A stretch of DNA of 62,690 nucleotides, counting the filler, from Nitrospinae bacterium RIFCSPLOWO2_12_FULL_45_22 (lineage in GTDB: Bacteria > 2-12-FULL-45-22): assembly GCA_001803565.1 (NCBI GenBank). It is 5 parts of 5 records of this genome, joined end to end, with 100 filler letters (N's around TTAATTAATTAA, not from the genome) between each part and the next. Parts side by side here need not be neighbours in the genome. Positions count along the whole stretch, not along the records: positions 44,238 to 57,328 come from MHDQ01000008.1; 4 more parts are not named here. One strand, 5' to 3'. The stretch's first letter is position 1. Every line of letters begins with the position of its first letter. A program made the translations under genes and the position numbers. Positions 12,507 through 57,428 of the stretch are shown one piece after another. The notes under the pieces are model-generated. The model was not told the origin of the DNA. It saw nothing but the letters and a program-made list of their open reading frames with translations, and did not search any database.

Positions 12507-12606
12507 NNNNNNNNNNNNNNNNNNNNNNNNNNNNNNNNNNNNNNNNNNNNTTAATTAATTAANNNNNNNNNNNNNNNNNNNNNNNNNNNNNNNNNNNNNN
12601 NNNNNN
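12507..12606. other. Artificial contig-joining spacer
   Basis: N44-TTAATTAATTAA-N44 (stops in all frames). Confidence 0.97.
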
Positions 12607-31564: not shown

Positions 31565-31664
31565 NNNNNNNNNNNNNNNNNNNNNNNNNNNNNNNNNNNN
31601 NNNNNNNNTTAATTAATTAANNNNNNNNNNNNNNNNNNNNNNNNNNNNNNNNNNNNNNNNNNNN
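31565..31664. other. Artificial contig-joining spacer
   Basis: N44-TTAATTAATTAA-N44. Confidence 0.97.
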
Positions 31665-44137: not shown

Positions 44138-44237
44138 NNNNNNNNNNNNNNNNNNNNNNNNNNNNNNNNNNNNNNNNNNNNTTAATTAATTAANNNNNNN
44201 NNNNNNNNNNNNNNNNNNNNNNNNNNNNNNNNNNNNN
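44138..44237. other. Artificial contig-joining spacer
   Basis: N44-TTAATTAATTAA-N44. Confidence 0.97.
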
Positions 44238-44276
44238 AAACTATTGGCAGATTTTTTTATTTGTGAACGGTTACTT

Positions 44277-46871
44277 TTATTTTATAATGTTTACCAGCAC
44301 GCTGTCATAATACAACCGGTCAAAATCCGGGGTGCCGTTCATAGTCATATCAACTCCGAAATAGAAGGTATATGTACCTTGAGGTAGTCCTGTCAGCAAG
44401 AGTTCAACAGGAGTAGTCAGATCAATTAAAGGGCCCTGATATGTGACAGAAAAGCCAGGTAGCCAGCCTCCCTGTATCTCGTAGTATTTCAGTCCCGACG
44501 GTGTATCCATTACTAACCACCAATCAGCATTTTCACCTGCATTGCCCCGGGCATCAAGGCTAACCTTAACTGAAAGGACATCATTTGTGCCTATGGTACT
44601 TGGATCATCTGAGCCATTTGCACTTATAGCAGGAACAGGATTATCAATGCCTGTGCCTCCTCCGTATCTAAAGACTCCGCCTCCTTGGGTAGCAACATAG
44701 ATTACCCGATCGTTTATGGCAATGTCTTTGACTGCACGTACCATCAATCCCGACATCTTCGAATCTGGAAATGGTGACCAGGTATTCCCCTTATTCAGGG
44801 ATTGATAAACACCAGAATATAGATCTCCCGCATAGATAATATCAGTATTTTTAGGATCAATGACCAGGGCAGAAATATATGGATTACTAGAATTGAAACC
44901 GCTGTTGTGCGGACCTGTCCAGGATGTACCACCGTCCTTACTTATCCATATCCCCCCAAACAATTCACCGGCAATCAGATAATCTGGTTGTTGTGGCTGA
45001 ATAACCAGGGCTTCGATATGCCTGGTACCAAGGCTATCCAGATGTACCCAGCTTATTGCCCCATTTGTGGTTTTATAGACACCATTTGTCGTAGCTGCAT
45101 AAACGATGGTGGAATTATTAGGATCAACCACTAATCCGTTCACATTGTGGCCATCAATAATAGAGGCCATCGGGGAAAATGTAGCACCAGCATCATTAGA
45201 TTTATAGATGACTGTTCCGATAGAAGGAGAAGAAATAAAGGTAGAGCGATCCTTGGCCAGGCCCGCATAAGCCACATCAGGGGCGGAAGGAGCAAATATC
45301 ATGGTTTTAAATCCCTGGCGCCTATTTGGATCGCTGGGGTTAGTTTCTGGATGCCTGAATACCGTAATAAAATCTTTTCCCCCATTAGCACTGCGTAAAA
45401 TAACGCCTTGATGCTCATCAGCTATCAAAACCAGGTTGGAGTTCGTGGGCTTAACAGCAACCGAATACCATTCGGCGAAATTTGCATCGCCGTTACCAAT
45501 GCCGATCCAATCTCCTCCATAATTAGAGCTTACAAAGGGACCGCTCCTCCCGATTGCATAAACGGTGGAGGAATTACTGGCAGGGATACAGAGGTCGTGA
45601 ATTTCCGCTCCAGAGTAACCCTTACTCCAATCTTTCCAGGTTTCCGACCCATCTGTGGAACGGAAAACACCGCCACCATAATTATTGGCATATAAGACGT
45701 CAGAGTTGACAGGATCAACAATTATATCAATTGGGACCCCGGCTCTAACCCCTGGCGGCCCCCAGTCAGCATCTCCAGGCTTAGAAAAACTGCTCCAGGT
45801 TAACCCTCCATTGTTACTTCGATAGAATGCCCTTGCGCTTCCAGCGTAAACGATATTTGGATTCGAGGGGCTGAAATTCACCGTTGTCATGATATCGTTT
45901 GTGATTACCTTGGTCCAGAAGGCACCTCCATCGGCTGTTTTAAATAATCCACTAACAGGGTTACCCGTGTACTGTCCCGAGCATGCATTATTCCCTGTGG
46001 CGGCAAAGAGAATCTGCGGGTTAGTCGGATGCATTCTCAGGCTTCCAACATACAGATCAGTAAATCCATTATTAATCGGGGTCCAGGTTCCCCCCCCATC
46101 AGTGCTTTTTAAAACACCTACACCACCAGGGAGACTATTTGTACAGTCAGAGTTATATGCCTCTCGATCAAAGATACCGGTGGATAGGTATAGAATATCG
46201 GGGTTGGTGGGGTTGATTATTAGATATCTGGCCAGGTTGTCTCCTTGCCAGATCAGGCTCCAGGATTCTCCACCATCTGTCGTTTTATATACCCGTCCTT
46301 TTACCCGGTTGAATTCCCATCCATTTACATCCGTTGGTATTTCGGCCTGAGCATAAACTACATTTGAGTTATCTTGCTGGATAGTAAATCCCCGGAAAAC
46401 TATCCCGATGTCGTCACCTAGTGTAATACCATTGGTTTTTAATGTCCATGTGGTCCCACCGTCTGTACTTTTGAAAACCCCAAAAGCTGATCCCTCTCCA
46501 TTCGTTCCTGCCCAAATAACATCATGATTATTAGGGTCTATGGTCAAGCTGAAAATATTGACAGCATCTCCTGAGGGGCCACCCTTTATAGAGATACCAG
46601 AATTGGCTTGATACCAGGTCTGTCCGGCGTTGATGCTCTTGGCTACCCCTGCATAATTGTCTGTAACATACATGATACTTTTGTTAGCAGGGTTTATACG
46701 AACATCATATCCCAACCCTCCTAATGGTCCACCAGTACTCACCCATGAAGTCTGGGAAGCAGTTTCATCTGTACATAAAAATAGTAATAGAGCAATAAAG
46801 GACAAAAGAAGTAGTAACCTTCTCAGCTTTAATATATTCTTTTTATGCCTTAAGCCCCTTGTCTGATTCAT
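44277..46871 (-). CDS. Secreted VPS10/BNR (Asp-box) double beta-propeller protein with C-terminal beta-sandwich
   Basis: Signal peptide; many S/TxDGGxTW boxes; C-terminal ADWW...LPQGTYTFYFGVD domain. Confidence 0.85.
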   Translation of the reverse strand: MNQTRGLRHKKNILKLRRLLLLLSFIALLLFLCTDETASQTSWVSTGGPLGGLGYDVRINPANKSIMYVTDNYAGVAKSINAGQTWYQANSGISIKGGPSGDAVNIFSLTIDPNNHDVIWAGTNGEGSAFGVFKSTDGGTTWTLKTNGITLGDDIGIVFRGFTIQQDNSNVVYAQAEIPTDVNGWEFNRVKGRVYKTTDGGESWSLIWQGDNLARYLIINPTNPDILYLSTGIFDREAYNSDCTNSLPGGVGVLKSTDGGGTWTPINNGFTDLYVGSLRMHPTNPQILFAATGNNACSGQYTGNPVSGLFKTADGGAFWTKVITNDIMTTVNFSPSNPNIVYAGSARAFYRSNNGGLTWSSFSKPGDADWGPPGVRAGVPIDIIVDPVNSDVLYANNYGGGVFRSTDGSETWKDWSKGYSGAEIHDLCIPASNSSTVYAIGRSGPFVSSNYGGDWIGIGNGDANFAEWYSVAVKPTNSNLVLIADEHQGVILRSANGGKDFITVFRHPETNPSDPNRRQGFKTMIFAPSAPDVAYAGLAKDRSTFISSPSIGTVIYKSNDAGATFSPMASIIDGHNVNGLVVDPNNSTIVYAATTNGVYKTTNGAISWVHLDSLGTRHIEALVIQPQQPDYLIAGELFGGIWISKDGGTSWTGPHNSGFNSSNPYISALVIDPKNTDIIYAGDLYSGVYQSLNKGNTWSPFPDSKMSGLMVRAVKDIAINDRVIYVATQGGGVFRYGGGTGIDNPVPAISANGSDDPSTIGTNDVLSVKVSLDARGNAGENADWWLVMDTPSGLKYYEIQGGWLPGFSVTYQGPLIDLTTPVELLLTGLPQGTYTFYFGVDMTMNGTPDFDRLYYDSVLVNIIK

Positions 46872-46876
46872 CCTGA

Positions 46877-48541
46877 TTACCTCTTGATTATTAAGTTTTT
46901 TCGAGCAATTTCTATATCGGGTATTTTTAAGCCCTTAGCGTCTAACAAATTTTTATACACCCTGCGATAGAGCAATCTGGTAGTTATGTGGAGTGATCTA
47001 GATAGGGTTTTGGGAACATGAAACTGATAGTTTGAAACATCAGACTGATTGGCAGGAATCCTATCATCAGATTCTACAAGCGTGGGACGCCAATGGGGGG
47101 CTGGATATTCATTTTGAAAGTGCCGCTTCCTTCGCCCATCAGGATAGGGCAATAGATCTTTCAACACCTTAGCAAATCCTTTGCCAGGCAAGCCTGCATA
47201 GTTCCCCTCTTCTACCGTTCCAACTCCACCCCATACCGGCACCCGTTCACCTTTGTTCATCAATAAACTGCTCCCATCTCCATCAACAACATCCACCAGC
47301 AGCAACATATTACGCATGGGATTCCCTGTGGGGTAATGATGGCCTGCTTTAACATTTTTAACCGTTACACATACCTTCAATGTATCCCCTGCCAAATTGG
47401 CCTGGGTGATAAGGTCAATCGCCTCCATCATAAAGACCCTATCTCTGACACCAAAAAACAGATGAGAAGGAATTGTCACCGGATCACGCAAAACCCCGCC
47501 TTCTTTTTCTAAAGCAAAGCGGGTCATTTTGCCATCGGGTTTCATATGGCAATCCTGGCAATGAATATTCTCTTTGGCATAAGAACTTTCAGCCCACTCC
47601 TGAAACTCTGAATAAGTCAAGACATTCCAAAATTTCCCGTTGTGACAAGGTGCGCAGTACTGGCTATTTTTATATAAAGGGTGGTAACTATCATCACCCG
47701 GAAAGACATCATCATACGGCCCATAAAAAGTCTGATGTCCATCGGCTGGCCGTTGTAATTTAATGGATAGAATTCCAGGATATCCGCCCGTCTGGTCAAT
47801 ATTAACACCGTTAATCTTATGACAAATATCGCAAAAAATCCCTTCTTTTACAACTCCTTGGGCCTCATTGGGATCAGCACTAAATGGGTTATCTAGAGCT
47901 AAGGCCGGCACATGACAGGTAGTACAATTCCCATTGGAATTTGGAAAGTCCAGCTTATAGCCTAGCCCAATACCTTTTCCCCCGTAAGCATCAGTTCCAT
48001 TAAAAAAGGCCAAAAATAGGGGATTTATTGCAGAACCGGCGTGAGCGCTGTTTCTCCATTGCTCCGTAAGCACCGGGTGGCATACCTGGCAGGGTTTAAC
48101 TTCTACTGTGCTGTCAATTGGCCTAGGCATTTGATCATGTGAGGGTGGAAGCCATTTATATTTCTGGTTATCACTCAACGGGATAGATATTAATATTATA
48201 CGATACTCTTTGTTTTCCCTGGAAACAGGTTGCCCGCCATTATAAAAGCCAGACTTCCAGGCAGTGATATATTTTGAACTGATAACCTCATCAATAACTA
48301 TGTTAAAATGACCTTTTTGATCAGTTAAAGTTAAAAATGAAGTTCCCTGAAGGCGAACAACTGCGTTGCTAATCGGCTGCCCTTTCACATCAACCACAAT
48401 ACCTGAAAACTGGCTTGCAAAAACTACACTTTGTAAAAAGAATAGCTGGAAAAGAGATAAAGGCAAGTAAGCTTTTCTACTATACTTTCCCACTTCTCCA
48501 TAAAGGAACATGTAGCAAAAGCCTTTGTAAGGACATAGCAA
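46877..48541 (-). CDS. Pentaheme c-type cytochrome with N-terminal carboxypeptidase-regulatory-like domain
   Basis: Five CxxCH motifs (CQVCH, CTTCH, CDICH, CAPCH, CQDCH); GHHYPTG motif; start uncertain. Confidence 0.85.
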   Translation of the reverse strand: MLCPYKGFCYMFLYGEVGKYSRKAYLPLSLFQLFFLQSVVFASQFSGIVVDVKGQPISNAVVRLQGTSFLTLTDQKGHFNIVIDEVISSKYITAWKSGFYNGGQPVSRENKEYRIILISIPLSDNQKYKWLPPSHDQMPRPIDSTVEVKPCQVCHPVLTEQWRNSAHAGSAINPLFLAFFNGTDAYGGKGIGLGYKLDFPNSNGNCTTCHVPALALDNPFSADPNEAQGVVKEGIFCDICHKINGVNIDQTGGYPGILSIKLQRPADGHQTFYGPYDDVFPGDDSYHPLYKNSQYCAPCHNGKFWNVLTYSEFQEWAESSYAKENIHCQDCHMKPDGKMTRFALEKEGGVLRDPVTIPSHLFFGVRDRVFMMEAIDLITQANLAGDTLKVCVTVKNVKAGHHYPTGNPMRNMLLLVDVVDGDGSSLLMNKGERVPVWGGVGTVEEGNYAGLPGKGFAKVLKDLLPYPDGRRKRHFQNEYPAPHWRPTLVESDDRIPANQSDVSNYQFHVPKTLSRSLHITTRLLYRRVYKNLLDAKGLKIPDIEIARKNLIIKR

Positions 48542-48629
48542 TACTCCGTCCCTACTTTTGGGATTCCTTCGTGTCTTTTCGTGACTAAAGAGTTACCAAG
48601 GATTTTATTTTCTGAACCTTCTACTAGAT

Positions 48630-51071
48630 TTATGCCAGGGCCTGTTCAGTGCGGGCAATGATCTGGTCTTGGACCTCTCTTTCCATATCCACGTAGTAAG
48701 CGCTAAAGCCTGCTACCCGCACTATTAGATCAGCATAGTTTTCTGGATGTTGCTGGGCGTCCAAAAAGATCTGGCGATCGAGGATATTGAACTGGATATG
48801 ATGAATACCCATATTTACCCAGGTACGCAGATAGCTAAGAAAGGTATCCTGGTGCTCCGGGCTAAGGTACTGGGGTAGAATCTTCTGATTCAGCAGATGA
48901 GTAAAGGTATGGGTATGGTCTATCCTGGCCACTGACTGCAGTACCGCGGTAGGCCCCCGCTTATCGGTACCTATAGCCGGTGATACCGTGCCATCATTAA
49001 ACAGACTGCGATCTTTGCGGCCATCTGGTGTAGCTCCAGTAAGACCACTGTAGGAATAGTAACTAGCACCACCCGTCCCATCCTCGAGGAACGGGCCGCC
49101 CCAAATATTCTTAAAGCCCCTGATGACCCCGGTAGTCCGCAGGTAGAGATCAGCGGCAAAGCGATCCACATAATCGTCATCATTACCAAATTTTGGGGCA
49201 TTGAGGCACATCTGGCGCAAGGCATCTTTACCTTCCCAATTGGTTTTCATGGCCTCCAGCAGCTCTGCCATCGCGACCTTCTTGTCTTCAAATACCAGCT
49301 TCTTGAGCGCTACCAGCGAATTAACCACTGTAACCTGCCCTACGGGCTGGATAATGGTATTGGGGAAGTATTTGTAATGCCGACAGTCCTGCCCCCGCTC
49401 CAGGCAGCCATCCAACAGGGATGATAAGAATGGTTGCGGTAGATACTCTCCATCCAACACATCTACCAGGTTATAGATGGCAACCAATTTCTCGGTAAAG
49501 AACCGCACCTGGTTAAGATGGGCCCCGATGACATCTTCGATAGAAGAAAAGCTCCTTGGGTCTGGGGTAGGATAGCCGATCTGTTTGCCACTAAACTTAT
49601 CAATGCCCTGGTTCAAGGCATATTCCAGACACTTGGGCAAGGCAAACATGCCGCCCAGGGCCCGCATACCCATGGCCTTACCCGGTATTATCCAGCGCAT
49701 ACATCCCTCCGTGGAATAGTCCCGGGCATCCTCCAGGGGTATACCCAGGTTCATCAGGTAAGGGATCATCATCTCATCATTGAAGAAGGAAAAGAGCCCC
49801 GCCATCTTTCTCAAGGTATCGGTAATGGCCACCAGAAATTCCTTCGGAGAATTGCGATGGAGGCGGATAGCAACGGCGGGTTGGGTGAGCCTTACGGACT
49901 TGCTGGCATCCAGGGCAATATAAGTCATTTCATTAGTAGCATCCTCGCCCGTAAGGGTCTGGCCACCAATAGTCAATACCCGGGCGGTTATCAACCCGCC
50001 ACCACCAGCCCCCTGCACCGGGGGGATCAACTGCCCCTCTTCATTCATCTTGAGCCAGAGGTGTTCGACTAACTCCTGGGCCTCTTCACGACTCGACCGG
50101 CCAGCTTCTCTATCTTTCCGATAGAAGGGAAACATGATCTGGTCAAAGCGGTCCCCTAAGCCCGGGGTTTGTAAGTCCAGGATCCGGGTAATAAGGGTGA
50201 TAAACCAATAGCATTGCAGGGCCTCATATAATCCCCTGGGCGGATTAGCTGGCACCCAGCTACATACCTTAGCTATTTCTTCTAATTCCTTTTTCCTATC
50301 TTCATCCTCTTCTTGCTTAGCCAGCTCCAGGGCCTTTTCGGCAAACCTCTGACCAAAGCGGATAGCCGCTTCACACGCTATTATGGTGGCTTCCAGGAAT
50401 CGCTTCCGGGAGAGATATTCTTTGGCATTGAGATAGCTAGCCGGGTCAGTTCCAAGCTCTGCCAGCCGTTCTTTTGCCTCGGCTATTATCCCATTCAACC
50501 CCACCTGGAAGAGCTTATGATAATTAGGCACACCAGTACGCCCCCCATGGATCCAGAGAAATACCCCTTGATTATTATAAAACCAATAGGGCTTGATCTG
50601 GTCAGGCAGCAGCTCCCGCTCCATGCCATGTACAGCCTTATTTTGCCAATACTTATGGATGGTGTGCAGTTCCCTCCGCTCATCTTCGCTCAGCAGCTCC
50701 TTATAGTCAGCATCTATGGCCTTATCTAACCAACGCCAGAATAGTTCTGGGTAAGTAATGAGGGAGCTGGGTTTACTGGCGATATTACCGACAATCCGTT
50801 CATGGGGTAAGATATATATAGTCATGTTATCTAAGAGCTTGGCTATGGCCCTGGCCCGGCGTAAGACCATAGGCTCCCCTTCGGTCTCCTGATAACTCTG
50901 AGTAATCAATCGGGCCCGCTCAATACAGAGCTTGATACCAGCCCGATAAGGCATGCGACTCTCCTTTTTTTCCTGGGCCAGTATACGGCCCAGGCCCCGC
51001 ATGCCCTTGCTCTGATAAATGGGTTCCTGCCGTAATTCTTTTATGGACTTCTTTTCTGCTACTACTGCCAT
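48630..51071 (-). CDS. Glycyl-radical enzyme of unknown specificity
   Basis: CIERARL...RRA N-terminus; C-terminal HIQFN...LIVRVAGFSAYY glycyl loop; Cys loop EGCMRW. Confidence 0.92.
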   Translation of the reverse strand: MAVVAEKKSIKELRQEPIYQSKGMRGLGRILAQEKKESRMPYRAGIKLCIERARLITQSYQETEGEPMVLRRARAIAKLLDNMTIYILPHERIVGNIASKPSSLITYPELFWRWLDKAIDADYKELLSEDERRELHTIHKYWQNKAVHGMERELLPDQIKPYWFYNNQGVFLWIHGGRTGVPNYHKLFQVGLNGIIAEAKERLAELGTDPASYLNAKEYLSRKRFLEATIIACEAAIRFGQRFAEKALELAKQEEDEDRKKELEEIAKVCSWVPANPPRGLYEALQCYWFITLITRILDLQTPGLGDRFDQIMFPFYRKDREAGRSSREEAQELVEHLWLKMNEEGQLIPPVQGAGGGGLITARVLTIGGQTLTGEDATNEMTYIALDASKSVRLTQPAVAIRLHRNSPKEFLVAITDTLRKMAGLFSFFNDEMMIPYLMNLGIPLEDARDYSTEGCMRWIIPGKAMGMRALGGMFALPKCLEYALNQGIDKFSGKQIGYPTPDPRSFSSIEDVIGAHLNQVRFFTEKLVAIYNLVDVLDGEYLPQPFLSSLLDGCLERGQDCRHYKYFPNTIIQPVGQVTVVNSLVALKKLVFEDKKVAMAELLEAMKTNWEGKDALRQMCLNAPKFGNDDDYVDRFAADLYLRTTGVIRGFKNIWGGPFLEDGTGGASYYSYSGLTGATPDGRKDRSLFNDGTVSPAIGTDKRGPTAVLQSVARIDHTHTFTHLLNQKILPQYLSPEHQDTFLSYLRTWVNMGIHHIQFNILDRQIFLDAQQHPENYADLIVRVAGFSAYYVDMEREVQDQIIARTEQALA

Positions 51072-51213
51072 CTCTCTCCCCTCCCTATAAAAATATTATC
51101 GGCCCTAGCTTCCCGCTAAATTTCCCACATCCTTCATTTCGCACAAAAAGTAGCTACCACTTTTACTCAATAAGATTAGTTCACTAATTCACCGAAGAGC
51201 ACGCAGAAATTCT

Positions 51214-51352
51214 GGACGCAGATGAACGCAGATTATGCTATTTCGGGAATACAGAAGTCAGCATGGAAGGAACGATCGAGTTCTATTCTGAATTCTGACT
51301 ACTGACTCCTGTATTCTAAGTTATCCGCGTGAATCTGGGGAAATCTGCGTCC
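51214..51352. repeat. Nested palindrome (GGACGCAGAT arms enclosing GAATACAG/CTGTATTC hairpin)
   Basis: GGACGCAGAT...ATCTGCGTCC outer; inner arms at about 51248-51316. Confidence 0.75.
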
Positions 51353-51393
51353 TCTTATTCAACTTAACAGTTTATAGACAGGAGTATGGGCTG

Positions 51394-51615
51394 TCAATTT
51401 TTTATTTTCTTTTCCAGGGCTTCCCAGCACTCCCAGCGGCAATCATCTGATCCAAACCAACATATCCTGGGCCGATGACAATAAATATGACTGAGTTTGC
51501 TTATCTCCTTACCTGTCGCTGGCTGATGGGTCACCCAACCACAAAGAATCTCCGTTTCTCCTACTTCTTCCGGGCAAATATGGGTTTCTAATTTAAATTG
51601 CAGTATCTGCTCCAT
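51394..51615 (-). CDS. Small Cys/His-rich protein
   Basis: 73 aa from ATG 51615 (AGGGG RBS) with six Cys; upstream of and on the same strand as the glycyl-radical gene. Confidence 0.55.
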   Translation of the reverse strand: MEQILQFKLETHICPEEVGETEILCGWVTHQPATGKEISKLSHIYCHRPRICWFGSDDCRWECWEALEKKIKN

Positions 51616-51718
51616 ATCTTTACCCCTTTGCTTTTTTAGCATTAAATAAAATGGAAATTCCTATGCAATCAAGTTAAGTTTATCACCTTGACGCAGTTAG
51701 GGCTATCTTTATTCTCAC

Positions 51719-52903
51719 TTATATTATTCTTAGACACTGGCCGACATTTTTCAGGGCTAGCAGGGCCCTTTCGAGCTGCGCAGAGGTATGGGTAGCCATG
51801 AGGCTTATCCGCAGGCGGCATTTGCCTTCTGGCACTGTAGGGGGTCGGATAGCGGGGGTATATACCCCTTGTTCCAGCAAGCCCTGGGCAAAGGCGCTAG
51901 TCTTCTCTAGCTCGCCTACTAAGATAGGGATGATATGGCCCTGGCTATCCATCAGATCAAAGCCTAGCTCTAGTAATGCCTGGCGGAAATAATTTACCCG
52001 CGCCCATAGTTGTTGTCGGAGCTGGGGTTGGCTTTCTATCAATGCTAAAGCAGCTAAAGAGCCGGCCAGGATACTGGGTGGTGGCGCGGTAGAATAGATA
52101 AAACTGCGGGCCTTGTGCCGCAAATAATCCACCAACCTTTCTGTCCCCACCACGTACCCACCTAAGTTCCCCAGGGTCTTGCTCAGGGTTCCTATCTGGA
52201 GGGGTATTTTATCCTCCAGACCAAAATGCTCCACCGTACCCCGGCCTTCCTTGCCTAACACGCCAAAACCATGGGCATCATCAATAAGGACCAGGGCCCC
52301 ATACTCTTCAGCTAATTTACAGATTCCAGGTAATGGCGCCAGGTCTCCATCCATACTGAAGACCCCTTCAGTAATGATCCAGTGCCGGGCGTATTGCTGG
52401 CTTTGGGAGAGGATCTGTTTGAGGTGCTCTAAGTCTTTGTGACGATAGATGGCCCGGGCCGCACTACTGAGGCGGCAGGCATCAATAATACTGGCATGGT
52501 TCAACTGGTCACTGATGATTAAGTCCTGGGGGCCTTGGGCCAGGGAAGTAATAAGGCCCAGGTTAGCCATATAGCCGGTAGAGAATAGGATAGCTGCAGG
52601 GTATCCCTTGAACCGGGCCAGCTTCCTCTCTAGCTCTTCATGTAGGGCCAGGTTACCCGAGATTAAACGAGAAGCCCCAGTACCAGTACCATAGTGGGCC
52701 AGGGCCTCCTGCGCTGCCTTGATAACATGGGAATGGGCATGGAGCCCCAGGTAGCTATTGGAAGAAAGGAGGACTATTTCCTGGCCATGCCAGAAGGCTG
52801 TAGGACCCGGTATGCCGTCCAGACTTTTTAAAGAACGGGACAGGCCCTTTTGCGCTATCTCTTCCAAAGCCTGTCCCAGGTAATCCTCCAGCCAGAAGCT
52901 CAT
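51719..52903 (-). CDS. bioF: 8-amino-7-oxononanoate synthase
   Basis: SSNSYLGL, GTGASRLISG, NHASIIDA, FSMDGD, DDAHG, GTLSK; start ATG 52903 overlaps the bioU stop. Confidence 0.95.
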   Translation of the reverse strand: MSFWLEDYLGQALEEIAQKGLSRSLKSLDGIPGPTAFWHGQEIVLLSSNSYLGLHAHSHVIKAAQEALAHYGTGTGASRLISGNLALHEELERKLARFKGYPAAILFSTGYMANLGLITSLAQGPQDLIISDQLNHASIIDACRLSSAARAIYRHKDLEHLKQILSQSQQYARHWIITEGVFSMDGDLAPLPGICKLAEEYGALVLIDDAHGFGVLGKEGRGTVEHFGLEDKIPLQIGTLSKTLGNLGGYVVGTERLVDYLRHKARSFIYSTAPPPSILAGSLAALALIESQPQLRQQLWARVNYFRQALLELGFDLMDSQGHIIPILVGELEKTSAFAQGLLEQGVYTPAIRPPTVPEGKCRLRISLMATHTSAQLERALLALKNVGQCLRII

Positions 52904-53892
52904 CGTACTATCATCGGCATAAATTCGGTAGAACCATAGACACCATAGATAGCCTTGTCTCGCAGCCACCAGGCCCGCTTGAGATAACCCAGGGCGGGGC
53001 CTACCACATTATCGGCCATAGTGGTCTCATCACCTAAAACGAAGCGATGCGTGCTCTTCTGGCCACTCAAGGTTATACCGGTTAGGGTCATCGTGGTAGT
53101 GACCGGTTTCTTACTAGATCGGGTATCCATGATACCACCCACTATGACCTTATTCCGGCTATCTACGACCCCTACTCTCTCCAGGAGTAAATCATCGGCG
53201 TGCTCCATCTCCTGAAATTCTAGCCTCCCCTCCCGGGCATCCAGTAATGCCTCTACTTCTTGATCGGTCAGGGCTTTAGCTGTTTCTACAGTATAACCGG
53301 GCAGATGGGCAATATCTTCCCGAATAGTAGCTTTATAATCCTGCCAGCTAGAGACCCCTACCCCCCACCATATCTTTACCTCCTCTACTTGCTGGAAGGA
53401 CTGGGCAGCTAATACCGCCGCGGCTGTTAATAGGCCCGGCGTCGCACCAGCACCAGTAATGTAGGTACTCCTGACTTCTTTCAGTCCTCGGTCTAGTTGG
53501 AACATCTGCTCCATAGCCCTGGTCCTTTTCAAGGCATCAGTAAACACCCCGCTATAGCCGGCATCAATAAAGCGCTCTATTATTTTGGCGATAAAGTCAT
53601 TAGGTAGATTAGGGAGGGCCACAAAGATCCCATCAATAGACTTTCCCAGGGCAATAATCTCACCAATAGAGTCCGGGCAATGCACCCCACCCGAAAACAG
53701 ATCAGCTACTGAACCCTGCGGTTTTATCTGGTAAATCTCCTGGCCATCCAACCCTTTTTCGCTATAGGCATAGCCCCCTTGATCACAGATAGCGACTAAC
53801 CTCATCTCCCTTTTTAAGCTGATAAAACGGGCGGCTGCCTTACCCAGCCCGCCTGCCCCCAGGATAGCTATCCGGCATGGTCTTTTTTCCAT
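52900..53892 (-). CDS. bioU: BioU (BioA-replacing suicide enzyme)
   Basis: GAGGLG Rossmann motif, ALPNLPN, DALKRT, GATPGLLTAAA, ATIREDIAHLPG, GDETTMADNV; located between bioB and bioF. Confidence 0.88.
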   Translation of the reverse strand: MEKRPCRIAILGAGGLGKAAARFISLKREMRLVAICDQGGYAYSEKGLDGQEIYQIKPQGSVADLFSGGVHCPDSIGEIIALGKSIDGIFVALPNLPNDFIAKIIERFIDAGYSGVFTDALKRTRAMEQMFQLDRGLKEVRSTYITGAGATPGLLTAAAVLAAQSFQQVEEVKIWWGVGVSSWQDYKATIREDIAHLPGYTVETAKALTDQEVEALLDAREGRLEFQEMEHADDLLLERVGVVDSRNKVIVGGIMDTRSSKKPVTTTMTLTGITLSGQKSTHRFVLGDETTMADNVVGPALGYLKRAWWLRDKAIYGVYGSTEFMPMIVR

Positions 53893-53916
53893 CTCTTCCT
53901 CCTTTCTATAGCCGAC

Positions 53917-54169
53917 GTCATTGGTCACTAGTGTAACGTTACATTAAAATGTTTCCAATGCGTAACCAAGTCTTTGCCACGAAGTCACAAAGACACAAAA
54001 TTTCTAATTCATTGTTTTTAAAGGAAAAAATAACTCTTTGTGCCTTAGTGCCTTTGTGGCTAATACAAGTTTTTAATGTATATATTTTAATGAAACGTTC
54101 TACTAGTCATTGGTCAATAGCAAATGCAGAGCAACAAGGATTTAACCTAATGACTAATGACCAGTGACT
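53917..54169. mobile_element. Triple-nested element: heptamer hairpin, CTAG-bounded MITE, inner hairpin
   Basis: GTCATTGGTCA arm interrupted at CTAG by CTAGTGTAACGTTACATTAAAAT...ATTTTAATGAAACGTTCTACTAG (53928-54106), which contains GCCACGAAG...CTTTGTGGC (53976-54060). Confidence 0.75.
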
Positions 54170-55157
54170 AATAACGGCCACTATAAGTTTCTAAGCCTAA
54201 ATCTTTTATCATCTGCAAATCTTCGGCTGCATCCCTCCCGGGTGTAGTAAGATACCCACCGATAATTAAGCCATTGGCACCAGCTAAAATACCCAGGGAT
54301 TGCAAATCCCGCAGATTTCTCTCCCTTCCACCAGCCAGCTTAATAATGCTATTTGGTAAAATCAGGCGAAAGATAGCAATAGTCTTTATTATCTCCCAGG
54401 GTGGTAGGGGGGGGGTATGCTCAAGGGGTGTGCCGGGTCTAGGGTTAAGGATATTAATAGTAGCACAATCTACTTCCAGCTCCTTCAAGGCAAAGGCTAG
54501 TTCCAGCCGCTGTTCCCATGTTTCACCCAGGCCTATTATCCCCCCACAGCAAGCCTCTAAGCCCGCTTCCTGTACCGACCTTATTGTGTCCCAGCGTTCC
54601 TGATAAGTATGGGTAGAGCAAATATTAGGAAAGAAGCTTTCTGCGGTCTCCAGGTTGTGGTTATAGCGGCTAATCCCTACCCGGTGCAGCTCTATCATAT
54701 ATTCCCTGGGGAGGTGTCCTAAAGAGCAGTCCAGCCTTAGCCCGGTAGTTCTCTTTAACTCTTCCAGGGTCTCTAATATCATCCCAAATTCTGTCTTGCT
54801 TACCCTTTTGCCACTGGTGACGAGGCAGAAATGGTCTGCCCCGCGCTGCTCCGCTTCCCTGGCTGCCTGTATTATTATCGAAGGGTCTAATAGAGGATAG
54901 GAAGGAGCCGAGGAATTATAGTGGATAGACTGGGCACAAAAGGCACAGTCTTCCTGACATTGCCCTGACCTGGCATTGATCAAAGAACAAAAATCCACCT
55001 TATCGCCTCTTTGCCTCTCCCGCACTTCACAAGCCACAGCCACCAAAGCCAGGATATCATTCTTTCGGTTTAGGTCGGTTAAAACTCGGACCTCAGACAG
55101 GCTTATACCCTTACCTTCCAGAACCTTCTCTCCCAATGTCTTAATCGCAGCTAGCAT
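54168..55157 (-). CDS. bioB: Biotin synthase
   Basis: CQEDCAFCAQS radical SAM motif, YNHNLET, CCGGIIGLGE, AGGRE, GGYLTT. Confidence 0.97.
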   Translation of the reverse strand: MLAAIKTLGEKVLEGKGISLSEVRVLTDLNRKNDILALVAVACEVRERQRGDKVDFCSLINARSGQCQEDCAFCAQSIHYNSSAPSYPLLDPSIIIQAAREAEQRGADHFCLVTSGKRVSKTEFGMILETLEELKRTTGLRLDCSLGHLPREYMIELHRVGISRYNHNLETAESFFPNICSTHTYQERWDTIRSVQEAGLEACCGGIIGLGETWEQRLELAFALKELEVDCATINILNPRPGTPLEHTPPLPPWEIIKTIAIFRLILPNSIIKLAGGRERNLRDLQSLGILAGANGLIIGGYLTTPGRDAAEDLQMIKDLGLETYSGRY

Positions 55158-55189
55158 AAGCTATACCCATTCACTATGAAATTTATCAA

Positions 55190-55822
55190 TGTAAAGCTTA
55201 AAACGAAAAGCGCAAAACTAAGGATAAATTACCTTAATACTCTAATTCATAAGTTCGGTGACGTATTTAAAAACTATTTACTTGTGTAAAAAGAGGAGAT
55301 TTTGAGATTATGGAGATGTGGAGATAATCCATCTATTCAGCCTCAATCCTTCGGAAGTCTGCCATCTCTTTTGCAAAATTGACAAGGATGGCCAATTTAA
55401 GTCCGGTGGCTTTCAGGTAGGAACGAACCTGAGCATAATGTGCTTTGCTCAATTCTTCCACGGTTTTCAGCTCTACGATTACCCTATCTTCCACCACAAG
55501 ATCAAGTCTGTGCCGACCTACTTCCTCATCTCTGTAATAAATGATTACTTCCTTCTCCGTCTCCACTCTTAGAGACTGACTTCTTAATTCGATTAGTAAC
55601 GTTTTGCGGTAAATGCTTTCTAAAAAGCCTGGACCAAGAGTTTGGTGAACTTTGATGATCGCTTGTATTATTGTCTCGGTAAGCTTATCTTGTTGATATT
55701 CCATAACTTTATCTCCAGCATCTCCTTATCGCCTTATTTTACACCCGCTGCGAGATTTAGCTGGGAGGTTTATAATATGTCAGCGTATTTGTGAATTCGT
55801 GTACTTAGTTTTAAGCTTTACA
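55190..55822. mobile_element. Long nested inverted-repeat element carrying the GxxExxY gene
   Basis: Perfect 15-bp outer arms TGTAAAGCTTAAAAC (55190) / GTTTTAAGCTTTACA (55808), plus inner arms 55284-55327 / 55709-55744. Confidence 0.7.
55333..55704 (-). CDS. GxxExxY family protein (PD-(D/E)XK nuclease fold)
   Basis: LGPGFLESIY; RLDLVVEDRVIVELK; QVRSYLK. Confidence 0.92.
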   Translation of the reverse strand: MEYQQDKLTETIIQAIIKVHQTLGPGFLESIYRKTLLIELRSQSLRVETEKEVIIYYRDEEVGRHRLDLVVEDRVIVELKTVEELSKAHYAQVRSYLKATGLKLAILVNFAKEMADFRRIEAE

Positions 55823-55831
55823 CTCTACGCT

Positions 55832-56815
55832 TTACGCTTTGTTCATCTGCAGAGAGACATCCCCAGTATAGATTTTTATCTGTTGGCCGGAGGCTAACCG
55901 AAGGATCAGAGCCCCATGCTCATCTACATCTTCAGCCATGCCTTCTAAGGTTCCCTGTTCAGAGACGACTCGTACCTCTTTATTCAGGGTCATCAATGAA
56001 TTACGCCACTCTTTTACGATAAGAAGCCCCTTACCCGCTTGTAGCTCCTTATACTCCTTCTCCATCTCTTGTAGGAGACCCACCAGGAATTTTAGCCGGG
56101 AGATTTCCTGCCCTAGCTCTAAATAAATACTGGTGGCACTATAGGCAATTTCAGGATATATAGTAGGATCGAAATTCATATTAACCCCTATACCTACGAC
56201 TACATAGACCACCTGATCTTGCTCGGCCGAAAATTCTGTAAGTATACCACCAACCTTATTCCCGCGGATCATTATGTCATTAGGCCATTTTATTGAAGAT
56301 TCCAACGGGGTTAGGGCCTCGATGGTTTTCACTACAGATAGAGAGGCTATCATAGTAATATAGGACACCTGGATAGGCGAGAGATGGGGGCGGAGGATAA
56401 GGGATATCAATATGTTCTTATTGGCAGGCGAGAGCCACTCCCGGCCCATCCTACCCCGGCCCTGGGTCTGCTCTTCTGCAATGACCAACGTACCTTCTCT
56501 GGCCCCTTGACTGGCCAACTCCTTGGCCAGCACATTAGTGGAAGTAGTAACCGGATAATAATAGACCTCCTGGCCAATGAAATCTGTCTTTAATTCCCTC
56601 TTGATAAAGACGGGGAGTAATTTATCCGGGCAACTGATCAGGCAATAACCCAGGTTGGGCTGCGACTCTATATGAAAACCCTGCCCCCGTAATGTCTTTA
56701 TCTTCTTCCAGACGGCTGTGCGGGAAACTTTTAACCTCTCGGCTATAGCCTCTCCTGAGATAAACCCTTTTTCTCTGATAAGCATATCTAACAAAACCAT
56801 ATCATCCCCCACCAT
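55832..56815 (-). CDS. birA: Bifunctional biotin ligase/repressor
   Basis: N-terminal HTH (SGE.IA..L.VSRTAVWK), QTQGRGRMGR, KWPND, KVGGIL. Confidence 0.96.
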   Translation of the reverse strand: MVGDDMVLLDMLIREKGFISGEAIAERLKVSRTAVWKKIKTLRGQGFHIESQPNLGYCLISCPDKLLPVFIKRELKTDFIGQEVYYYPVTTSTNVLAKELASQGAREGTLVIAEEQTQGRGRMGREWLSPANKNILISLILRPHLSPIQVSYITMIASLSVVKTIEALTPLESSIKWPNDIMIRGNKVGGILTEFSAEQDQVVYVVVGIGVNMNFDPTIYPEIAYSATSIYLELGQEISRLKFLVGLLQEMEKEYKELQAGKGLLIVKEWRNSLMTLNKEVRVVSEQGTLEGMAEDVDEHGALILRLASGQQIKIYTGDVSLQMNKA

Positions 56816-56850
56816 AGCACTCCTTCTCTCCAGGGAAAATATTATGGCCT

Positions 56851-56878
56851 ATTTTAATCCCAGATGCCCCATTGTCAA
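56851..56878 (-). promoter_or_regulatory. Probable birA/bio promoter, possibly overlapped by a BirA operator
   Basis: Minus strand TTGACA-N16-TAAAAT; plus strand TGTCAAC-N17-GTTAACG (56873-56903) loosely resembles a BirA box. Confidence 0.45.
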
Positions 56879-57011
56879 CCATTTTTTATTATCCCCGTTA
56901 ACGACCCTAGGCCTTAGTAACAGTTCACCAGGGTCAGGGATCAGTTGTCAGGCAGGTCTTTTTAGCGAGCAGTGAGAGGAGGTGTGGAAAAAAACTCCAC
57001 TCGTTTTTGGG

Positions 57012-57040
57012 TTGACTACACTAGAATAAAGCACTATCCT
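57012..57040 (+). promoter_or_regulatory. sigma70-type promoter upstream of the NusG paralog
   Basis: TTGACT-N17-TATCCT. Confidence 0.5.
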
Positions 57041-57179
57041 ATTTGAACCTGATTTGTTCCGGGGATTTAATTTTAAATTATGGAGACGCACCCCAGGCAG
57101 GGTGCCATAGCCTGCTGCTTCCTCCCTTCCTTTGTCAGCTCCCTCTCAGGGCTTGACATTTTCCCAGGAGGATAGAACA

Positions 57180-57328
57180 ATGGAGTGTTGGTATGCCATT
57201 AATACCAAGCCCCATAAGGAATCTTTTTGTGAAAATAATTTTCAGCGCATCTCTCTGGAGACCTTTTACCCCAGGTTGAAAGAGAAGAGGGTTATACGGC
57301 GAAAATATATCTGGACCACCGGCCCGCT
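57180..57328 (+). CDS. RfaH/UpxY-like NusG paralog, N-terminal fragment
   Basis: AGGAGG RBS; MECWYAINTKPHKE...ETFYP...GP matches the start of an NGN domain; cut by spacer. Confidence 0.75.
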
Positions 57329-57428
57329 NNNNNNNNNNNNNNNNNNNNNNNNNNNNNNNNNNNNNNNNNNNNTTAATTAATTAANNNNNNNNNNNNNNNN
57401 NNNNNNNNNNNNNNNNNNNNNNNNNNNN
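57329..57428. other. Artificial contig-joining spacer
   Basis: N44-TTAATTAATTAA-N44. Confidence 0.97.

Follow-up and report, generated by a model that had tools for sequence, protein, structure and literature searches.

A GCMRW-type glycyl-radical enzyme from a Nitrospinae bacterium: a clade apparently related to the X-succinate synthases and separate from them

Glycyl-radical enzymes (GREs) are oxygen-sensitive and perform anaerobic reactions that are hard for ordinary chemistry, and only for a few dozen of them is the reaction known. Whole GRE clades are still without experimental validation, as stated in section 7 of a June 2026 review (PMC13450708). The locus analyzed here raises the question of which reaction should be expected from a GRE whose thiyl-radical loop reads GCMRW, i.e., with an Arg two residues past the catalytic Cys (Cys+2). 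The gene lies at positions 48630-51071, on the minus strand, of a stretch of 62,690 nucleotides (the window) from the metagenome-assembled genome (MAG) of Nitrospinae bacterium RIFCSPLOWO2_12_FULL_45_22 (GCA_001803565.1, here G000), which comprises 3.67 Mb in 321 contigs, is 85% complete and seems to belong to a lineage of which very few genomes have been sampled. Our answer, to which we assign a probability of about 0.55, is that the gene encodes a functional PFL-like GRE of a non-eliminase clade related to the X-succinate synthases (XSS), that this enzyme would act on a carboxylate, and that its product would enter a CoA-dependent breakdown pathway.

The gene and its radical loops

The open reading frame (ORF) begins with ATG, runs for 813 codons with no internal stop, and has an AGGGAGG-type ribosome-binding stretch just 5′ of the start codon. 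In the translated protein (813 aa) Pfam recognized a PFL-like domain (residues 41-661, E 7.3e-176) and a Gly_radical domain (residues 695-794, E 2.8e-25). An AlphaFold2 model built on 32 relatives (mean pLDDT 84.6, pTM 0.89) gave TM-scores of about 0.84-0.90 against every solved PFL-like GRE, so that the ten-stranded barrel of these enzymes is predicted to be present; because all the classes score about alike (~0.84-0.89), the TM-scores are unable to separate one GRE class from another. The Cys loop, G456-C457-M458-R459-W460, is encoded at 49692-49706 (minus strand, as are all the features below), with Cys457, the presumed thiyl radical site, at 49701-49703; this residue aligns with the catalytic Cys of glycerol dehydratase (GD, C433) and with that of TutD. 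The Gly loop, R785-V-A-G788-F-S, is encoded at 48702-48719, with Gly788, the presumed site of radical storage, at 48708-48710. The RVAGFS motif and the catalytic Cys, which the original prediction had described as intact, are thus borne out by the ORF, the Pfam domains, the alignment and the model, and we conclude that the gene is intact, the fold and both radical loops being preserved in the predicted protein. The peculiarities ascribed to the loop were also found: it has no Glu at Cys+2, whereas the five best loop matches in the PDB (HypD, glycerol dehydratase, PflD, HplG and the propanediol dehydratase 9rco) all read C-[V/I]-E; it lacks the Cys-Cys of PFL, since Gly456 precedes Cys457; and it shares its CM with the fumarate-adding enzymes, TutD carrying CMSP.

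The loop could be an oddity of this gene or a feature of its relatives. A word-indexed search, in which 7998 candidates were scored, returned 1079 proteins at E≤1e-50, and the loops of the best 120 homologues (57-100% identical) were counted. At least 109 of these carry CMRW, 4 CLRW, 2 CVRW and 2 CMKW, with 3 unresolved by pattern, and the radical Gly is kept in 120 out of 120. In an alignment of 32 clade members, with a mean column identity of 69%, no sequence departs from C457, W460, R470 or G788, and at least 90% of the sequences keep M458 and R459; further conserved Cys are C270, C481 and C556. These counts indicate that the CMRW loop is a family signature and not a one-off. The homologues are named at their source only as formate C-acetyltransferase, glycyl radical protein or hypothetical, and their hosts are mainly MAGs of Chloroflexota, Dehalococcoidia, Deltaproteobacteria/Desulfobacterota and Thermodesulfobacteriota. 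G000 itself holds four GREs, namely the one studied here, CMRW paralogues on contigs C15 and C176 (62% and 53% identical, respectively) and a GCMAP enzyme on contig C318 (39%). The replacement of the radical Gly by Ala, Ser or Thr, as in the aminoacyl radical enzymes (AAREs), was not seen in the clade, where Gly788 is invariant. Such residues (RVAAYS, RVSTWT, RVATYT, etc.) do occur in the more distant 50%-identity representatives P0157, P0185, P0188, P0190, P0191, P0217, P0239 and P0250, which resemble the AAREs of 2024 as these are presented in section 5.8 of the review (PMC13450708). A literature search that included "CMRW" with "glycyl radical" found no paper on the clade, and supplements (GRE trees, tables of sequence-similarity networks) might name the cluster. 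According to an earlier study (PMC6258724), there are sediment GREs that fall outside the groups of the characterised enzymes.

The clade is common in groundwater, soil and sediment metagenomes. Near-identical copies of the gene itself were present in many public metagenome runs: half or more of the sampled words were found in 16 rows, which come from up to 15 studies and of which 2 are possible sources. No RNA dataset was among the rows of this word search that contain the gene. Two libraries tagged as metatranscriptomic, which are probably DNA and from one sample, gave short contigs on the ORF and its 5′ region, but because the runs were selected for containing the gene, these contigs are uninformative on expression.

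Placement among glycyl-radical enzymes

The protein scored below the curated cut-off of every NCBIfam model. The best match was to TIGR01774, the PFL2/glycerol dehydratase subfamily (585 versus a cut-off of 678), followed by HpsG (545 versus 1000), HypD (529 versus 1100), CutC (468 versus 1050), HpfG (442 versus 1000), IAD (392 versus 1100), HPAD (320 versus 1150) and PFL (TIGR01255, 77 bits versus 994). Among the 37 PDB sequences matched, the best was the C. butyricum glycerol dehydratase (1R8W; 498 bits, ~35% identity, with a CVE loop), whereas TutD, MasD and AAD (7e7l) gave 383, 378 and 354 bits, respectively. Hence, with the equivalogs far below their cut-offs, no clustering with a characterised GRE was seen, and none of the solved structures has the GCMRW loop. 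Glycerol dehydratase and the other eliminases and isomerases (TM 0.87-0.90) are alike to the protein in size, barrel and Gly loop, but the active-site positions are not: in the phmmer alignment to 1r8w, Glu435, His164 and Asp447, the last of which we take to be catalytic, correspond to Arg459, Arg178 and Ala471, and the CMRW loci examined have no microcompartment or aldehyde-handling neighbours. In the sections of the review concerned, His164 is named as a catalytic residue of GD, and C-x-E, whose Glu hydrogen-bonds the substrate hydroxyl and is essential in CutC and IslA, is present in all the eliminases and isomerases, i.e., GD, PD, HypD, CutC, IslA/IseG, HpsG, HplG, YbiW and PflD (PMC13450708 sections 5.6-5.7). 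The decarboxylases have Glu505 (HPAD, next to Cys503), Glu502 (IAD) or Gln484 (PAD) at Cys+2 (section 5.4), PFL and TdcE need a Cys-Cys pair, and the other classes are the XSS and the AAREs; an Arg at Cys+2 is found in none of the classes as treated there (PMC13450708). On our reading, the enzyme is not a 1,2-eliminase.

An exhaustive search of 50%-identity representatives (E≤0.001) returned 8852 relatives. Of the other clusters, the nearest are 41-46% identical and carry the loops CMWP, CVGW, CVTW, CVSW, CLQP and CVRW. A FastTree phylogeny (LG+gamma, midpoint root) was built from 153 sequences: the four GREs of G000, 9 close homologues, and those 140 of the listed representatives that are 700 aa or longer. 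The 10 shorter representatives were excluded, the leaves were labelled by loop sequence in place of named reference sequences, and relatives of the query are over-represented in the sample. The CMRW clade has a support of 1.0 and is nested in a 40-leaf split, also with a support of 1.0, in which Glu at Cys+2 is present in 0 of the 40 sequences, compared with 78 of the 113 outside. This superclade includes the C318 enzyme and the XSS proxies P0187 and P0143 (754 and 522 bits to TutD, respectively), and within it the CMRW clade is separate from P0187, P0143 and P0205, i.e., it lies outside the XSS clade. Because of this Glu-less split, we place the clade as kin of the XSS side rather than of the eliminases, despite the higher raw scores of the latter. 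The other Glu-less clades of the superclade (CMWP, CVGW, CVTW, CVSW, CVRW and CMAP, the last with the C318 GRE) are its nearest relatives, from which it differs in its loop, its own invariant residues and its full support. Taken by sequence, the clade is separate from every characterised GRE class.

The XSS (BssA/TutD, 4PKC/5BWE; MasD, 9O8U) and the CMRW clade share the Glu-less side of the tree and a loop that starts with Cys-Met, and each has a conserved Arg about 13-15 residues past the Cys that may be equivalent. In BSS and MASS one fumarate carboxylate sits in the oxyanion hole of the Cys loop and the other on the Cys+15 Arg (Arg508 in BSS/TutD, Arg492 in MASS), according to excerpts of two studies (PMC12358834; PMC12583861 section 4.2), and PFL binds pyruvate via Arg176 and Arg435, the latter at Cys419+16 (PMC13450708 section 5.3). 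The residues of TutD were mapped onto our protein with P0187 as a bridge in the 153-sequence MAFFT alignment. Arg508 fell on Met469, one residue before the clade-invariant Arg470 (Cys+13; 49662-49664), in a gapped loop, and Arg470 is a plausible candidate, by its position in the sequence, for the counterpart of both the XSS fumarate Arg and PFL Arg435. Ile617 corresponds to Val577, and Ile384/Phe385 fell in a Gly-rich loop at residues 354-361 (Ile384 on Gly356), which is poorly predicted in the AlphaFold2 model. The clade differs from the XSS in that it is 36-39% identical to the proxies, has CMRW and not CMSP, with an extra Arg at Cys+2, and has anion transporters nearby; our protein is also ~50 residues shorter than TutD (813 versus 878 aa).

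Gene neighbourhoods and the activating enzyme

The neighbourhoods were analyzed in 70 clade loci, 6 from species-representative genomes (L013-L018) and 64 metagenomic (L030-L093), with a fragment (L019) and members of other clades with 35-38% identity (L020-L029) set aside; gene calling followed a crude longest-ORF rule, the proteins were clustered by BLASTP, and the representatives were named by Pfam and NCBIfam. Dropping two contigs of G000 itself and six same-order loci chosen by eye (L032, L035, L047, L060, L071 and L091) left 62 loci. Downstream DNA of 1 kb or more is available for 40 loci, and in 19 of them an activase gene directly follows the GRE gene. De-duplicated loci with 5 kb or more of flank numbered 27, and in 23 of these one or more CoA-ester genes lie within 8 kb, compared with 1328 of 5000 random windows (26.6%) in the control, which was drawn from G000 alone and not from the genomes of the relatives; in the same 27 loci a carboxyltransferase (usually a pair) was found 9 times, an activase 12 times and an MFS or TRAP (DctM) permease 6 times. 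The same-strand neighbours within 300 bp upstream (n=21) were carboxyltransferase (5), acyl-CoA dehydrogenase (ACAD, 2), QueA (2), one each of enoyl-CoA hydratase (ECH), thiolase, 2-hydroxyacid dehydrogenase, GRE, XhoI and an unnamed ORF, and 6 others. Those downstream (n=32) were activase (18), ECH (2), CoA-transferase (2), ACAD (2), one each of OYE-type reductase, AMP-ligase, SDR and GRE, and 4 others. The NCBIfam matches of these neighbours, all below cut-off, were mmdA-like for the carboxyltransferases, nearest to PimC/PimD for an ACAD pair, and nearest to succinyl-CoA:mesaconate and succinate-glutarate transferases for the CoA-transferases. In loci whose GRE is 64-67% identical to ours, a carboxyltransferase pair adjoins the gene in L036, L042 and L046/L047, and a CoA-transferase pair in L034/L035. 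These results indicate that in the relatives the clade genes sit in CoA-ester operons, and that these are like the XSS operons, in which CoA activation, beta-oxidation-like enzymes, mutases or carboxyltransferases also follow. The proposal that the Arg at Cys+2 points to an anionic substrate fits with the TRAP and MFS transporters, the dicarboxylate-type CoA-transferases and the mmdA-like carboxyltransferases of the relatives; a different chemistry we infer from the loop. On contig C15 of G000 (L096/L093), the CMRW paralogue directly follows HGD-D (2-hydroxyacyl-CoA-dehydratase-like) genes and a BcrAD/BadFG-type ATPase, a pairing that recurs in two unrelated metagenome loci, L065 and L086.

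The original prediction had also pointed out that no activating enzyme is adjacent, and contig C8, on which the gene lies (13,091 bp), indeed carries neither an activase nor a CoA-ester gene beside it. An activase is not absent from the genome. A single one scored above the cut-off (C318:12556-13428; TIGR02494, 360 bits versus 174, the next best reaching 47 bits); it directly follows the GCMAP GRE and is 43-52% identical to 25 activases that lie beside CMRW genes elsewhere, which are themselves 39-100% identical to each other (median 55.5%). On C318 (L094) this fourth GRE (847 aa) and the activase are followed by a second radical-SAM protein, and the contig also encodes an MCM-like mutase with a B12-binding subunit, two HGD-D proteins, ferredoxin-domain proteins and hypA/hypB. 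The ratio of GREs to activases is 4:1 in G000, 5:1 in G041, 4:1 in G042 (one a fragment), 2:2 in G043, 1:1 in G044 and about 10:2 in G045 (with fragments), so that GREs exceed activases in most of these clade-bearing genomes, all of which are MAGs of partial or not known completeness. The four Gly loops of G000 (RVAGFSA, RVAGYSA, RVAGYAA and RVAGYSA) are alike, and the known cases of cross-activation concern GREs with identical Gly loops or with Gly loops in which the only difference is the aromatic residue that follows the Gly, according to section 2.5 of the review (PMC13450708). For these two reasons, the activation of our GRE in trans by the C318 enzyme is plausible; the search for a cognate activase thus yielded one enzyme on another contig, whose pairing with this GRE we infer.

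A tblastn search of G000 with the proteins of the neighbourhoods matched family-III CoA-transferases at 25 places, MCM-like mutases at 11 and HGD-D proteins at many, and a carboxyltransferase at a single place, away from every GRE; to judge from its gene content, the source organism looks like a CoA-ester specialist. When 40 relatives of the genome were searched, one of the same order and 39 sharing only the domain, only more distant GREs (35-39% identity) were found, in 4 genomes.

The window joins five contigs of the MAG, C5 (1-12506), C6 (12607-31564), C7 (31665-44137), C8 (44238-57328) and C33 (57429-62690), with N spacers at 12507-12606, 31565-31664, 44138-44237 and 57329-57428. Gene order across the joins is no real linkage, and because of these spacers the linkage of the GRE extends over 44238-57328 and is not inferable beyond, with flanks of 4.4 and 6.3 kb. 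Upstream of the GRE is a biotin cluster (51719-56815, minus strand) composed of bioF, a 342-aa ORF with a weak ELFV-dehydrogenase match, bioB, a gene for a PD-(D/E)XK protein, and birA; downstream are genes for a multihaem cytochrome and then a BNR/sortilin-repeat protein. The commonest partners of the clade elsewhere are carboxyltransferases of the biotin-dependent type, and the adjacency to a biotin cluster was seen in this contig only. Directly upstream of the GRE, at 51394-51642 (minus strand), is an 82-aa ORF with seven Cys, of uncertain gene status and with no Pfam family; since tblastn found no homologue in the other loci or in G000, it was rejected as an XSS-like subunit or conserved partner. 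The 5′ intergenic region of the GRE (51072-51393, minus strand) contains the ribosome-binding stretch, one sigma-70-like match (51397-51369) and short dispersed repeats. In the promoter and terminator scan of this region, the sigma-70-like match corresponds to the consensus only, and the scan was given no weight because it found fewer matches than the shuffles (3 versus 6.4 expected). Rfam gave no match on the whole of contig C8 at E≤1, and a riboswitch or other RNA upstream of the GRE was rejected. Three repeats of 50-80 nt upstream of the GRE (51128-51353) have copies on more than 20 other contigs, and a repeat of ~175 nt between the 342-aa ORF and bioB (53929-54105) has ~95% identical copies on at least four; depth spikes and contig breaks occur at both places in a public DNA run.

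Candidate reactions and their implications

In the mechanism that we propose, the single activase of G000, encoded on C318, would install the radical on Gly788, and this would be handed to Cys457. The product would be an organic (di)acid. Its CoA thioester would be formed by an AMP-ligase or by a pair of family-III CoA-transferases, and the thioester would then be handled by mmdA-like carboxyltransferases, acyl-CoA dehydrogenases, hydratases and thiolases. For the specific chemistry, the candidate that we favour, and only tentatively, is an XSS-like C-C bond formation between an activated C-H of a polar or carboxylated substrate and fumarate or a similar enoate. It is likewise conceivable, at odds well short of even, that the GCMRW clade represents a new functional class of GREs, hydroalkylase-like or in some other way forming or rearranging C-C bonds, which would attack a C-H bond in a carboxylated, i.e., anionic, substrate and not in a hydrocarbon, open a new anaerobic route for acids, and be served by one activase for whole arrays of paralogues that differ in their substrates.

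Several observations weigh against the view of a carboxylate-acting, XSS-related enzyme feeding a CoA pathway. Our own GRE has no CoA-ester neighbour, its flanks being the biotin cluster, the multihaem cytochrome and the BNR/sortilin-repeat protein. By raw score, the nearest solved structures are the eliminases and not the XSS. Arg470 falls one alignment column away from the XSS Arg, in a loop with gaps, and Trp613 and Asn615 of TutD, which we take to be fumarate contacts, correspond to Ile573 and Gln575, whereas Gln707 (MASS Glu690) corresponds to an invariant Thr666. The context of the clade is heterogeneous, with 4 of the 27 long loci having no CoA-ester gene, and L013 and L032 have four tandem GREs among housekeeping genes. 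In L013 (5054-14965, from a Dehalococcoidia MAG) and L032 the genes around the tandem GREs are argJ/argB/argG and Mur-ligase genes; no activase lies within 10 kb, and the L013 genome has 5 GRE matches and 1 activase. The control for the CoA-ester genes comes from a genome that is itself rich in such genes, and the GRE-to-activase ratios are soft because the own MAG is 85% complete. The oddity of the gene is weakened as well, since Glu-less Cys loops are widespread among unstudied GREs, as the superclade illustrates, and since a missing neighbour activase is little surprise in a fragmented MAG and in a clade where GREs outnumber activases. Finally, the function was deduced from sequence and gene neighbours.

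One alternative to the carboxylate-acting enzyme is a true X-succinate synthase, which would add an uncharged hydrocarbon (alkane, alkylbenzene or terpene) to fumarate. The superclade shared with the XSS proxies, the C-M opening of the Cys loop as in CMSP, the invariant Arg adjoining the column of the XSS fumarate Arg, and neighbours that recall the Bbs/Ass pathways (a CoA-transferase pair, ACAD, ECH, SDR, thiolase with DUF35, MCM-like mutase and carboxyltransferase) would all agree with it. We nevertheless regard it as unlikely. The benzylic and allylic XSS so far retain an alpha-beta-gamma architecture, as described in the part of the review devoted to them (PMC13450708), whereas no conserved small subunit, and no small FeS subunit of the beta or gamma type, was found when all ORFs of 35-130 aa that lie no more than 2.5 kb from the gene were clustered across the 70 loci; this search covered the vicinity of the gene, and XSS-type subunits (beta and gamma; delta in MASS) may be encoded elsewhere. 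The small-ORF clusters obtained were rejected as alternative-frame shadows of activase, carboxyltransferase or ACAD genes. The equivalents of Trp613, Gln707 and Ile384/Phe385 are an Ile, a Thr and a Gly-rich loop, the TutD and MasD scores are below that of the best eliminase, and the extra Arg459, together with the TRAP/MFS transporters in 6 of the 27 loci, points to a charged substrate. We give a similarly low chance to a radical decarboxylase that would act on an organic acid as HPAD, IAD, PAD and AAD do, the arginines binding the carboxylate group to be removed. The two conserved arginines near the catalytic Cys and the anion transporters near some loci would suit it, and the active sites of GRE decarboxylases do vary, PAD having its Gln at Cys+2 in the account of section 5.4 (PMC13450708); but the product would need none of the CoA-transferases, ligases, ACADs and carboxyltransferases that are common as same-strand neighbours, the IAD and HPAD scores are low, Cys+2 is an Arg, and the clade is apart from the C-x-E sequences in the tree.

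A C-C lyase that would cleave a 2-oxo or 2-hydroxy acid to an acyl-CoA, like PFL and TdcE but with one Cys, is rather doubtful. An Arg is present ~13-16 residues past the catalytic Cys in both cases, Arg470 being placed like PFL Arg435, and could hold a carboxylate; both are tied to CoA thioesters, the CoA-ester context running throughout the loci; and genes for a 2-oxoacid:ferredoxin oxidoreductase and a 2-hydroxyacid dehydrogenase flank the gene in L018 and L037. These 2-oxoacid genes are, however, in only 2 distinct loci, the essential Cys-Cys is replaced by a Gly and a single Cys, and the sequence is very distant, as the 77 bits to TIGR01255 indicate. A 1,2-eliminase or isomerase in which an Arg replaces the general-base Glu would account for the top sequence and fold scores, to glycerol and propanediol dehydratases and IseG, and for the PFL2/glycerol dehydratase subfamily as the best NCBIfam match. 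We consider it improbable: the fold scores do not discriminate, all three GD catalytic positions checked are replaced, the clade is on the Glu-less side of a fully supported split, and the characterised eliminases and isomerases all keep the C-x-E, essential as it is in CutC and IslA, as far as the review sections on them go (PMC13450708). The faintest chance goes to the idea that this copy is a silent or decaying paralogue, stranded away from activase and pathway genes. The contents of the 13-kb contig would agree with it, and the two paralogues could cover the function, but all 813 codons are open, every clade-invariant residue is kept, near-identical copies occur in many public metagenome runs, and orphan placement is common in the clade.

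That another orphan GRE clade exists is in itself unsurprising to specialists. The value of the CMRW clade lies in its size, its conservation, its distinct active-site signature and its recurrent CoA-ester and carboxyltransferase partners. The signature and the partners together offer a testable lead to an unassigned step of anaerobic carbon turnover in abundant uncultured bacteria, and to start with, orthologues accompanied by their own activase and pathway genes (e.g., L017/L091, L036 and L015) are preferable to the orphan copy described here. If the enzyme performs a hydroalkylation of functionalised substrates, it may be a useful biocatalyst. If the clade is a new class, subsurface Dehalococcoidia and Desulfobacterota would have in it an undescribed way to channel recalcitrant organic acids into a carboxyltransferase-linked CoA breakdown.

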